Shown here: positions 840-8,614 of the stretch, in pieces
Layout: each line of letters opens with the position of its first letter
Position numbering within the stretch: the first letter of the stretch is position 1
Source of the DNA: a virus
Taxonomy: Duplodnaviria; Heunggongvirae; Uroviricota; Caudoviricetes
DNA length: 8,824 nt
IMG/VR virus record: IMGVR_UViG_2681813234_000007
Strand: one strand, 5' to 3'
Notes under the pieces: generated by a model
Told to the model about the DNA's origin: nothing
Database searches by the model: none
What the model saw: only the letters and a program-made list of their open reading frames with translations
Program-made: the position numbers and the translations under genes

Positions 840-4436
<3,597 letters not shown>

Positions 4437-4445
4437 TAAATATCA

Positions 4446-4462
4446 AGGGGATAATTTCCCCT
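4446..4462. other. short stem-loop (AGGGGA-taatt-TCCCCT) in the J / downstream-gene intergenic region
   Basis: Perfect 6-bp inverted repeat with a 5-nt loop, 10 nt after the J stop. There is no following T-run, so it is not a canonical intrinsic terminator; possibly an mRNA processing or stability element. Confidence 0.3.
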
Positions 4463-4481
4463 ATGACGTAAAGGATTTAAT

Positions 4482-4779: not shown

Positions 4780-5436
4780 ATGTCAGGTTTTGAAGTTTAT
4801 AATTCTGCGGGTGCTCTGACGATTGACAGTACTAACAAGTCAATTCTCACAGGTGCTGTTAAGGCAATGGGTACACTGACGGATCAGGGGTACTACACTG
4901 GCTTTACGTGTGCTTTTGGTAATGGTGGTGCTCTTGGCTTCTTGCCACTTGCAACTATCGTGAACAGGAACACTACGCAGTACTGGTTTCAGATACAGAA
5001 AGATGGTGGCTGGTGTTTTCCCGGTGCTGAGTTGTTCCAGCCGGGGATAGGGCGATTCATGACGAGTACGCACACTGCAACGCCTACGTCTGGTTATCTC
5101 GATGTGTTTAATGCTTCTGGTACTTTGATATGGTCTGCTGCATCGGCGGCTACCATGCCCCGTATACAAGGTTTCTTAACCGTACCTGCTGCAACAGATT
5201 TGAGTACTGCAATCACAGTAACAAGCCCTGTTGCTAATCCCTGGTTTTGCTGGTCACAATGTCCGGGTAACTTAAGTGATGATGGGGAAACAATCGGTTA
5301 TTCGGGAATAGTTATTCGACGTAATAGCAGTACTTCATTCAGCTTGCAGTACGTTTCAAAGAACCAGAAAACATATCGTCAGGCAATGGGTAACAATGGA
5401 TTTCAAATTGCATTAGCTACTTTCACCGGATATTAA
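4780..5436 (+). CDS. tail-associated beta-rich protein, paralogous to the preceding gene, 218 aa
   Basis: The ORF track gives 4735-5436, but the ATG at 4780 sits 1 nt after the stop of the previous gene (TAAtATG) and begins MSGFEVYNSAGALTID, matching the N-terminus of the 98-aa protein. The motif recurs internally as DVFNASGTLIWS near residue 108. Confidence 0.75.
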   Translation: MSGFEVYNSAGALTIDSTNKSILTGAVKAMGTLTDQGYYTGFTCAFGNGGALGFLPLATIVNRNTTQYWFQIQKDGGWCFPGAELFQPGIGRFMTSTHTATPTSGYLDVFNASGTLIWSAASAATMPRIQGFLTVPAATDLSTAITVTSPVANPWFCWSQCPGNLSDDGETIGYSGIVIRRNSSTSFSLQYVSKNQKTYRQAMGNNGFQIALATFTGY

Positions 5437-5476
5437 CAATAAATATCATTATAAGAATAATAATAAGCGAGACAAT

Positions 5477-5743
5477 ATGGACATTGGTACAATCTTGGCT
5501 CTTATTATTTCTGGCTGTGTACTTCTGTACACAATATTCCGCGACAATACAAAAGATACTGATGGACTACTTACACGTGTTTCAGAACTGGAAACTAAAC
5601 AAGCAGTACAGGAAAGTAGTATGGTGCGTATTGAAGCTGATCAGAATAAGATGCGTGATGCTTTAACTAAACTTGAAAACCAGATTCATGATCTGGATGT
5701 GAAAATTGAAAAAATCATTACCATTCTTGAACAGAAACAATAA
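5477..5743 (+). CDS. membrane-anchored coiled-coil protein, 88 aa (possible lysis-associated protein; function unknown)
   Basis: N-terminal hydrophobic helix (ILALIISGCVLLYTIF) is followed by a highly charged heptad-like segment (ELETKQ...LENQIHDLDVKIEKIITILEQKQ). The gene ends 8 nt before a strong terminator and lies convergent to the endolysin. The Shine-Dalgarno is weak. Confidence 0.6.
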   Translation: MDIGTILALIISGCVLLYTIFRDNTKDTDGLLTRVSELETKQAVQESSMVRIEADQNKMRDALTKLENQIHDLDVKIEKIITILEQKQ

Positions 5744-5750
5744 GAAGAAA

Positions 5751-5780
5751 GGCGATAGTACATAATGCTATCGCCTTTTT
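5751..5780. terminator. bidirectional rho-independent terminator between the convergent 88-aa gene and the endolysin
   Basis: GGCGATAGTA-cataa-TGCTATCGCC forms a 10-bp stem (one G-U pair) with a 5-nt loop, followed by TTTTTG on the plus strand. On the minus strand the same hairpin is followed by TTTCTTCTT. The stop codons of both flanking genes (5741-5743 and 5782-5784) abut it. Confidence 0.8.
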
Positions 5781-5781
5781 G

Positions 5782-6231
5782 TTATTTGTTGGTTAGTACT
5801 GCAATCATTGCATCAACACGATTAGGTGTTTGTTTATACCATAATGAATCTTTAGCCTGTCTGATGGCTTCCGGGTAATCTTTTGCTTTAAGGGCTACTA
5901 ACATCTTTTTGAATTTCTGTACCCCGCCTAAACCTAACTGGAACATCATTATCACAAGAAAATTTTTCCAGTCGTCAGGTAGCCAGATGTTGAGCGTTTC
6001 AACATTATGTATTGCAATAAGTATATCCTGGTCCAGTAGTCTATCTGCTTGCTCAATAGTAATACCATCTGGATACTTTTCACCAACATGTAGTAAATGA
6101 CCGTAGCCAATGGTTTCAAATCCTAGTGAATCTTTGTATGTCCAAAATTTGTTATCGTGAAAGTACTTCAATTTTGTTTGATAAGCGATAGTACCTTCAT
6201 ATTCTTTTAATCTGTCTTTTAGTTTACTCAT
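5782..6231 (-). CDS. endolysin, T4-type lysozyme (glycoside hydrolase family 24 muramidase)
   Basis: 149-aa minus-strand ORF. The translation aligns by eye with T4 lysozyme as I recall it: FETIGYGHLL vs YTIGIGHLL; LVIMMFQLGLGGVQKF vs LINMVFQMGETGVAGF; WYKQTPNRV vs WYNQTPNRA. Equivalents of the catalytic Glu/Asp/Thr are present (E12, D34, T40). AGGT lies 9 nt upstream of the ATG on the minus strand. Confidence 0.93.
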   Translation of the reverse strand: MSKLKDRLKEYEGTIAYQTKLKYFHDNKFWTYKDSLGFETIGYGHLLHVGEKYPDGITIEQADRLLDQDILIAIHNVETLNIWLPDDWKNFLVIMMFQLGLGGVQKFKKMLVALKAKDYPEAIRQAKDSLWYKQTPNRVDAMIAVLTNK

Positions 6232-6282
6232 TAATAAATACCTATAATAAATCTATATAGGGATATTTATTGTGAGAGTTAA
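6222..6282. promoter_or_regulatory. candidate divergent promoter region between the endolysin and the plus-strand operon
   Basis: Plus strand has a perfect TATAAT at 6243-6248 but a weak -35 (TTTACT at 6222-6227, 15-bp spacer). Minus strand has -35 TTAACT (plus coordinates 6277-6282), a 17-bp spacer and -10 TATATA (6254-6259). AT-rich DNA yields such matches easily, so this is tentative. Confidence 0.3.
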
Positions 6283-6721
6283 TAAAGCATGGGAGATGTT
6301 CGATACTGATATGTGGGATATGTCAGAAGTAACAGATGGGAATTACGTCTCGTTTATCTACATTATTCAGTTTCCAGATACTGGCGAGTACTATTTCGGT
6401 AAGAAGCAAATCTATAAAAAAGTACGCGACATAAAGAATTTAAAGGCTACTTCAGTTGAATCGAACTGGCCTGATTATACCGGTAGTAGTAAGTGCGTTA
6501 ATGAAATGATTGATGCCGGAATGCCATACACCAAAAAGATTTTGTACTGTGTCAAATCAGACGCAGAGGCAACGATTTTAGAAACGGCATTGATTAGCTA
6601 CTTTGGTTTACATCCTGACTGTTTAAATAAGGCAATAATGTGTAAGGCACGATTACCAAAGAATCGTTTAGATTTATTTAAAGTACTGCAAGATCTAATT
6701 GATATGTTGGGTGTGAGGTAA
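6272..6721 (+). CDS. GIY-YIG nuclease-domain protein (standalone catalytic domain, EndoII/Seg-like), 149 aa
   Basis: Degenerate GIY-YIG core: FIY (res 28-30), 10 residues, YFG (41-43), Arg52, Glu104 in ILETALI and Asn119. The spacing mirrors my recollection of I-TevI (Y6, Y17, R27, E75, N90). The track start is a GTG at 6272 with AGGGA at 6259-6263; alternative ATG starts at 6296 or 6314 are possible. Confidence 0.6.
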   Translation: MRVNKAWEMFDTDMWDMSEVTDGNYVSFIYIIQFPDTGEYYFGKKQIYKKVRDIKNLKATSVESNWPDYTGSSKCVNEMIDAGMPYTKKILYCVKSDAEATILETALISYFGLHPDCLNKAIMCKARLPKNRLDLFKVLQDLIDMLGVR

Positions 6722-8571: not shown

Positions 8572-8584
8572 ATAAATTTATTAG

Positions 8585-8613
8585 AAAGCCTGTATCTAGC
8601 ACAGGCTTTTTTT
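8585..8613. terminator. hairpin with flanking A- and T-tracts between the two minus-strand genes; canonical terminator in plus orientation
   Basis: AAAGCCTGT-atctagc-ACAGGCTTT stem followed by T7 (8607-8613) on the plus strand. On the minus strand it is preceded by A7 and followed by TTTCTAATAAATTT. It lies directly between the stop of the 8615-8824 gene and the start of the 7864-8571 gene. Confidence 0.55.
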
Positions 8614-8614
8614 G

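Follow-up and report, generated by a model that had tools for sequence, protein, structure and literature searches.

The late promoters of bacteriophage T4 are read by gp55 together with gp33 and the gp45 clamp. These promoters have an 8-bp TATA box, TATAAATA, whose distance to the transcription start is about one helical turn, with +1 at the sixth base after the box, and they show no sequence conservation at -35; the commonest natural variant of the box carries A at position -13 and accounts for 9 of 50 sites (PMC2988020). In the T4-like cyanophages S-PM2 and Syn9, the late promoter NATAAATA is found upstream of homologues of late genes, and gp55, gp33, and gp45 are all encoded by the T4-like cyanophages (PMC2984593). 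A T4-late-like motif, TggTAaAAtA, has also been described upstream of the late genes of coliphage rV5, which has no gp55, gp33, or gp45 (PMC3606486). Our literature search did not turn up any small temperate siphovirus for which a TATAAATA-type box had been described, and the box motif reported here for a prophage family is apparently new to the literature searched. We show that this box is a conserved, oriented, and position-specific DNA motif that is avoided in coding sequences and located ahead of late genes.

The sequence analyzed is a stretch of 8,824 nucleotides, referred to below as the window, which covers that end of an integrated phage-like element where its tail and lysis genes lie; the chromosome is of the E. 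coli/Shigella type, and the element adjoins mipA, yeaE, yeaD, and gapA. One of the loci examined (L008) is 100% identical to the window. A megablast search of 50,697 phage records detected no relatives of the window in the DNA of isolated phages, and only two partial matches were found in 5,426 complete E. coli genomes. The features of the window that are required below are as follows.

First genes, in order: a 207-aa tail-module gene (no family match), then a DUF6950 gene, then J
J, stop TAA at 4434–4436: 1067-aa J-like tail tip gene with Phage_Tail_Tip and fn3 domains
4435–4442, plus strand: box AATAAATA, 39 nt before the ATG (4482) of the 98-aa gene
4446–4462: hairpin AGGGGA-TAATT-TCCCCT, beginning 3 nt past the first box
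4482, ATG: start of the 98-aa gene, which follows J
Stop TAA at 5434–5436: 218-aa DUF8377 gene, which follows the 98-aa gene
5438–5445, plus strand: box AATAAATA, 31 nt before the ATG (5477) of the 88-aa gene
5477, ATG: start of the 88-aa membrane protein gene, which follows the 218-aa gene
5746–5780: strong 15-pair hairpin with a T-run after it, between the convergent 88-aa and lysozyme genes
6231, minus strand: start of the T4-type lysozyme gene, which is embedded among plus-strand genes
6233–6240, plus strand: box AATAAATA in the context AATAAATACC, 31 nt before the GTG (6272) of the GIY-YIG-like gene
6264–6271, minus strand: box AATAAATA in the context AATAAATATCC, 32 nt before the lysozyme ATG (6231)
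6272–6721, GTG start at 6272: GIY-YIG-like gene of 149 aa, followed by several small genes

The original prediction concerned a longer word, the 11-mer AATAAATATCA, which was said to occur in identical form directly after the stop codons of J and the 218-aa gene. Exactly two copies are present in the window (4435–4445 and 5438–5448), both on the plus strand, and a copy with one mismatch, AATAAATATCC, lies on the minus strand at 6261–6271. Both exact copies are located at gene ends, as claimed, but their registers differ: copy 1 overlaps the final two bases of the J stop codon, and copy 2 starts two bases past the stop codon of the 218-aa gene. No flanking base extends the match between them on either side. 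The window contains 23 maximal direct repeats of at least 11 nt, compared with 12.4 ± 3.6 in dinucleotide shuffles, so the pair taken as a repeat is not significant and falls within chance, and the caution with which it was first presented was justified. The claimed length did not hold. Identity over 11 nt between the two gaps is found only in the window's own lineage, and relatives with both boxes share just 7–9 nt, from which it follows that the final three bases (TCA) of AATAAATATCA are a coincidence.

The first eight bases of AATAAATATCA are the box AATAAATA. Its four copies in the window are all in short intergenic gaps, each oriented toward the next gene, so that the non-coding fraction, about 5% of the window, holds all of them. 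The whole-window count is unremarkable (4 vs. 1.35 ± 1.26 expected; at least four in 12 of 200 shuffles). When the five short gaps were shuffled, however, 0.40 copies were expected in them compared with the four observed (P ~0.001); it is the location of the box, not its count, that exceeds chance. When the gaps and coding sequences in 19.7 kb of this prophage were compared for all 7-mers without bias, AATAAAT and ATAAATA showed the strongest enrichment in gaps. The density of ATAAATA boxes per kb of intergenic sequence was 8.1 in the window vs. 0–1.4 in the host flanks and in lambdoid phages with a 43%-identical homologue of the 218-aa gene. Vibrio phage henriette was considered as a further candidate and rejected, with only a weak enrichment of the word (1.27 per kb intergenic).

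To extend the analysis to the family, about 130 further loci were collected via homologues of the 218-aa protein and the small terminase, and ten complete or nearly complete contigs of 25–36 kb (G1–G10, IMG/VR) were assembled from these loci. Statistics on gaps were calculated from the non-redundant gaps of 33 loci, representing about 30 related Enterobacteriaceae prophages. Because the family sequences are mutually related, the counts overstate the number of independent events; despite this kinship, the effect sizes are large. In unidirectional gaps, ATAAATA occurred 68 times in the forward orientation and never in the reverse, compared with 8.5 ± 2.9 in per-gap shuffles; of the 21 words with this composition, it ranked first. 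In divergent gaps, 35 copies were found vs. 4.6 ± 2.1 in shuffles. In coding sequences, by contrast, ATAAATA was the rarest of the 21 words, and across the family it was about 59-fold denser in unidirectional gaps than on coding sense strands. The comparison of intergenic and coding frequencies that had been suggested as a check is therefore strongly positive for the core word. Synonymous-codon shuffles yielded 55.6 ± 6.7 copies on the coding sense strand and 84.4 ± 8.2 on the antisense strand, whereas only 15 and 16, respectively, were present; control words showed far smaller depletion than this 4–5-fold deficit. Avoidance on both coding strands points to a signal at the DNA level. Altogether, 161 of the 193 unique box instances were intergenic or at a gene edge.

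The sequence and surroundings of the box were then compared across the family. The consensus is (A/T)ATAAATA(C/A/T), with A (0.61) or T (0.23) as the first base, and relatives carry TATAAATA, AATAAATA, and CTAAATA at equivalent sites. A purine is common at the sixth base after the box (A, 0.62; G, 0.21), which is the expected position of +1 if the box works as in T4. Upstream of the box, the information content was <0.2 bit and no -35 signal was present in 154 instances; matches of at least 4/6 to TTGACA at a spacing of 16–18 nt were found in 3–6% of these instances vs. 13% at random positions. We also considered a sigma-70 promoter, defined by a -10 element near TATAAT (A at -11, T at -7) with either a -35 TTGACA or the TG of an extended -10, and rejected it: a consensus scan of the window gave 24 sites vs. 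30.6 in shuffles, and the -35 signal was absent. The core TAAATA makes a poor sigma-70 -10 element because the T at -7 is missing, and the base following the box is T in only 18% of instances. As a possible additional T4 signature, the boxes of T4 middle promoters (MotA) were examined and discarded; they were not enriched (4 intergenic vs. 54 coding).

The orientation of the box relative to the Shine-Dalgarno sequence is fixed, at a distance of 13–20 nt, and the distance from box to start codon is bimodal, with classes of 25–34 nt and 40–59 nt. A box precedes the fibre and major tail genes, the gene that follows the latter, and the distal tail, 88-aa, lysozyme, and GIY-YIG-like genes. Sites of the 25–34-nt class precede the 88-aa, lysozyme, GIY-YIG-like, and distal tail genes, and either have no hairpin or have a box paired with a second, inverted one within a divergent gap. 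The 40–59-nt class corresponds to three orthologous gaps (fibre/major tail, major tail/next gene, and J/98-aa gene), in which a GC-rich hairpin starts 0–6 nt after the box. In the gap after the major tail gene, this hairpin is a full terminator with symmetric A- and T-tracts. A box immediately 5' of a hairpin in three orthologous gaps is an odd location for a promoter.

In the gap after the 218-aa gene (gap 2), which has no predicted structure, (A/T/C)TAAATA is kept at or overlapping the stop codon of the gene in about 18 of 22 diverged lineages, and the box often incorporates the stop codon TAA itself (e.g., tgaTATAAATACTC, taaTAATAAATAC, and taaATAC). The remainder of the gap diverges, with the exception of the Shine-Dalgarno sequence. 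Relatives that are 97% identical to the window read CGATAAATAT here. Copy 2 is the only one of the pair that forms TATCAT with a weak -35 (9/12), and this combination is not conserved in the relatives. The hairpin at 5746–5780 is, judging from its pairs and T-run, the terminator that would close the unit begun at box 2. A search of Rfam 15 gave nothing at either 11-mer, and its sole hit was to STnc380 (5689–5787, 25.4 bits against a gathering threshold of 60, E = 0.13). This sub-threshold match is probably due to chance; it overlaps the terminator as well as the 3' end of the 88-aa gene. In two loci (L032 and L033), a (CAATAA)n array takes the place of the box in the gap after the 218-aa gene homologue.

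The gap after J (gap 1) is less uniform. The hairpin of the window has a predicted energy of -11.6 kcal/mol on the plus strand and -12.3 on the minus strand. On the plus strand, TATGACG stands after the hairpin in place of a U-tract; on the minus strand, its T-rich tail is the complement of the 11-mer, TGATATTTATT, and gives a terminator-like score. The hairpins of the relatives have different stem sequences, and in most of them TTTT(T) follows on the plus strand, which indicates an intrinsic terminator there; in the window's lineage, this T-run is decayed to TATGACG. As for covariation, the stems are out of register in the alignment and only three invariant pairs were scored. The sequence TAATAAATA is kept in nine of the ten diverged lineages that have gap 1. 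In the 97%-identical relatives, many of which have IS insertions in J, the box reads AATAAACAACA, and 8 of the 45 positions of the gap (4437–4481) differ, compared with about 2.5% overall. The gap is missing altogether in many relatives, including E. coli 14EC007 (L011, 23893–23901), and the J stop then overlaps the next start (TAATG). The copy at 4435 is dispensable in some lineages. The same box is set against a hairpin there; it may restart transcription at this site, or it may be a decaying copy. Equivalence of the two members of the original pair is not supported: the 5438 copy is promoter-like, 31 nt before a start codon, and the 4435 copy abuts a hairpin and is mutated or absent in relatives. 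The suggestion of a late-promoter-like element is the best-supported explanation of the 5438 copy and is uncertain for the 4435 copy. The 45-nt gap itself is an insertion/deletion difference bounded by TAAT...TAAT. J is split by insertions of the IS3 or IS66 family in several genomes (L002, L003, L005, L009, and L014), and in L014, part of the J region is inverted. In the hosts with an IS-split J, the prophage is decaying, and it is in these lineages, too, that the gap-1 box is mutated.

The 40-nt gap between the lysozyme and GIY-YIG-like genes (6232–6271) is a near-perfect palindrome, AATAAATA(T)CC(C)TATA ... TATAGGGATATTTATT, in which each arm provides the box for one gene and the complement of the Shine-Dalgarno sequence and spacer of the other. 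The inverted pair of boxes is conserved in the relatives, and in L011, both arms are jointly changed to ACTAAATACC. The lysozyme gene lies on the minus strand among plus-strand genes and so must have a promoter to itself; within the 40-nt gap ahead of it, nothing is conserved except the box, which is at the same position in the relatives. The product of the neighboring GIY-YIG-like gene matches the GIY-YIG domain of SegE, and the gene occupies the same position in nine of the ten assembled genomes. Being fixed in place, it is unlike a sporadic homing endonuclease, and it may have another role.

We next compared the box with the T4 late promoters. The box AATAAATA of the window corresponds to the natural A(-13) variant of T4's TATAAATA, neither T4 nor the prophage family has a -35 element, and in both, the boxes precede structural and lysis genes. 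In 50 kb of the T4 late region, which served as a positive control, the intergenic boxes were 12–35 nt before ATGs, with one exception (median ~27 nt), a spacing similar to the 25–34 nt of the prophage family. Two inverted boxes in gaps of about 45 nt also occur between the T4 gene pairs 4|53, inh|segE, and 26|51, comparable to the arrangement at 6232–6271. There are also differences. The first base of the box is mostly A in the family and T in T4; no gp55 is detectable in the prophage family; the family elements are integrated, about 25–36 kb long, and have a siphovirus-type tail module, whereas the T4-like phages are large myoviruses; and some family boxes lie directly upstream of hairpins, not downstream of terminators. 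The first position is similarly relaxed in the cyanophage late promoter, and the prophage family uses A, T, or C; the cyanophages, however, encode gp55, and none was detected in the prophage elements. Phage rV5 is a precedent for a T4-late-like motif in a phage without the T4 late transcription proteins, although it is a 138-kb lytic myovirus with a more degenerate motif, the function of which is putative there too. The box is thus T4-late-promoter-like in all features tested, but it falls outside that system as defined by gp55.

Prophage-like elements of Enterobacteriaceae, ~25–36 kb in length, thus place the box before individual tail and lysis genes. Our favored explanation is that the box is a -10-only promoter element of the T4 late type, read by a putative factor, and we rate the chances of this at slightly better than even. 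According to this proposal, RNA polymerase, directed by the factor, would open the DNA at the box, which would be equivalent to positions -13 to -6 of T4, with no need for a -35 element. Transcription would start about 6 nt downstream of the box, and a leader of ~20–28 nt, comparable in length with those of T4, would carry the Shine-Dalgarno sequence. In the window, the box at 5438 would provide a separate start for the 88-aa gene, that at 6233 (plus strand) one for the GIY-YIG-like gene, and that at 6271 (minus strand) one for the lysozyme gene. At the hairpin-linked copies, including the one at 4435, the start would be at the foot of the hairpin or in its 5' arm. More speculatively, transcripts arriving from upstream would meet the complete hairpin, a terminator in the relatives, and transcripts initiated at the box would keep at most a short 5' stem. 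Several observations count against a promoter: at L012 2907–2923, the box itself is missing and its complement alone occurs, separating the Shine-Dalgarno sequence from the ATG of a plus-strand gene; the 4435 copy is lost in the 97%-identical relatives and its gap is absent in others; and neither gp55 nor a conserved regulator was found in the elements.

Four other explanations of the box were weighed against a promoter. That TAA stop codons, often in tandem, and A/T-rich spacers yield functionless words resembling AATAAATA would account for the 11-mer pair, the non-significant whole-window count, the confinement of the TCA extension to one lineage, and the general forward bias of A-rich words in gaps. 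Such an origin is nevertheless highly improbable for the core box, given its approximately eightfold excess over per-gap shuffles that keep composition, its rank as first of 21 same-composition words in gaps and last in coding sequences, its 4–5-fold depletion on both coding strands, its sharply preferred distance to the start codon, and the retention of orthologous sites while their flanks change. Chance is largely refuted for the core box and is the best account of the three extra bases. A signal in the RNA is a more serious alternative, even if a doubtful one: the box could act within the 5' leader as an A/U-rich translational enhancer (an S1 or standby site) or as a determinant of processing or stability. 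Its fixed orientation 13–20 nt upstream of the Shine-Dalgarno sequence is what such an element would show, and a stable hairpin adjoins it in three gaps, as is often the case for RNase E sites and stabilizers. The depletion on the antisense strand (16 vs. 84), however, is not expected of an RNA signal, and S1 and RNase E are loosely specific, whereas here a single exact heptamer stands out from the 20 other words that share its composition. The pair at 6232–6271 would in addition require promoters within the neighboring coding sequences, and there was no Rfam match. Specific evidence for the role in RNA processing that had been put forward as one possibility in the original prediction was not found.

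The box might instead be a by-product of other sequences, namely the A-tract of a bidirectional intrinsic terminator (for the copy at 4435) or, where genes diverge, the complement of the U-rich stretch that separates the Shine-Dalgarno sequence from the start codon in the opposite gene (GGNTATTTATT-ATG). Like an intrinsic terminator with an A-tract, the 4435 copy directly precedes a GC-rich hairpin that is followed by a T-run in relatives; the minus-strand hairpin with TGATATTTATT is terminator-like, the tracts after the major tail gene are symmetric, the boxes in divergent gaps each complement the spacer of the other gene, and L012 2907–2923 has the complement alone. But the plus-strand T-run is missing in the window, the exact heptamer is kept and not mere A-richness, which terminator A-tracts do not need, and the other three boxes of the window are without such a hairpin. 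A by-product also leaves unexplained both the avoidance in coding sequences and the hairpin-free unidirectional gaps of the 25–34-nt class, including that at 5438, and the spacers of plus-strand genes in unidirectional gaps are not TATTTAT. This explanation is therefore unlikely. A binding site for a regulator or a nucleoid protein, that is, an operator of a repressor or activator encoded by the element or a nucleation site for H-NS, is also quite improbable. The H-NS site consensus is tCGATAAATT. A DNA-level signal, palindromic pairs in divergent gaps, the CGATAAATAT of the 97%-identical relatives at gap 2, and the location in an AT-rich, horizontally acquired island are all compatible with such a site, but the 68-to-0 orientation bias and the distance of about 30 nt to the start codon fit a core promoter better, an activator bound so near the ATG would leave no space for a -10 element, start site, and Shine-Dalgarno sequence, and no conserved regulator gene was found.

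The elements were also searched for a protein that could read the box. By phmmer, tblastn, and a profile, no gp55 homologue was found in the ten assembled genomes or in 25 family sequences. phmmer and tblastn searches with T4 gp55 gave only chance-level matches in the family. A gp55 profile built from seven diverse proteins, the sensitivity of which was shown only on these seven source proteins because the two DCP80 segments intended as a control gave no match, reached an E-value no better than 0.49 when run on the 25 family sequences as 4795 six-frame segments. The 2004 phage records with a gp55 match were all from T4-like or other large phages. Genes common to the ten genomes are those for packaging, head, tail, and lysis, together with a few small genes of no assigned function. 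The early region, upstream of the terminase (the first ~10 kb of G1–G10 and L012 1–14600), consists of variable cargo, including a serine recombinase, HNH/NUMOD4 endonucleases, a Tlde1-domain protein, DUF3800, and, in L012, a group II intron reverse transcriptase. Among the early and core proteins, Pfam and PHROGs recognized HNH/NUMOD4, Tlde1, DUF3800, DUF6998, and structural proteins only, and no sigma factor, repressor, or replication gene. The lack of a recognizable repressor or replication gene raises the question of whether the elements are autonomous phages. Two further options are both unlikely: the elements might carry a gp55 analogue that was not recognized, or their late genes might be activated in trans by an infecting T4-like phage. 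If the latter were true, the elements would be satellites or an abortive-infection device against T4-like phages.

A promoter at the box would account for the expression of single tail and lysis genes in a compact prophage, including that of the opposite-strand lysozyme gene with its upstream gap of only 40 nt. It would also mean that the simplest promoter architecture known in bacteria, a TATA-like -10 box standing alone, extends beyond the large T4-like phages that encode gp55 and occurs in a family of small integrated elements that is common in Enterobacteriaceae. Whether the box is read by a sigma-like protein, by a factor of the host, or by a superinfecting T4-like phage would then become directly testable. 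In annotation, the box can be used as a marker of the boundaries of transcription units in these prophages.

Finally, we note some observations on individual sequences. Escherichia phage DCP80 (PQ671644.1; L154 and L155) carries the best full-length relative of J (28% identity) and was considered as a characterized cousin, but the comparison is not relied on because T-even genes are combined with a siphovirus-like tail module in this record, and some genes are duplicated. DCP80 is classified as T-even, has two copies each of rIIA and spackle, and looks chimeric or misassembled; the order in its tail module is terminator, TATAAATA, 33–38 nt, ATG. In the early region of L012, an intergenic gap (12521–12680) contains a simple-sequence array, (ATTATTAA)n. 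Near the end of the window, at 8572–8614 on the minus strand, a terminator hairpin (AAAGCCTGT...ACAGGCTTT with a plus-strand T-run) is followed by TAATAAATTTAT at the ATG of a 235-aa gene; this sequence contains the partial look-alike AATAAAT 4 nt from the start codon, which places it outside the promoter position.
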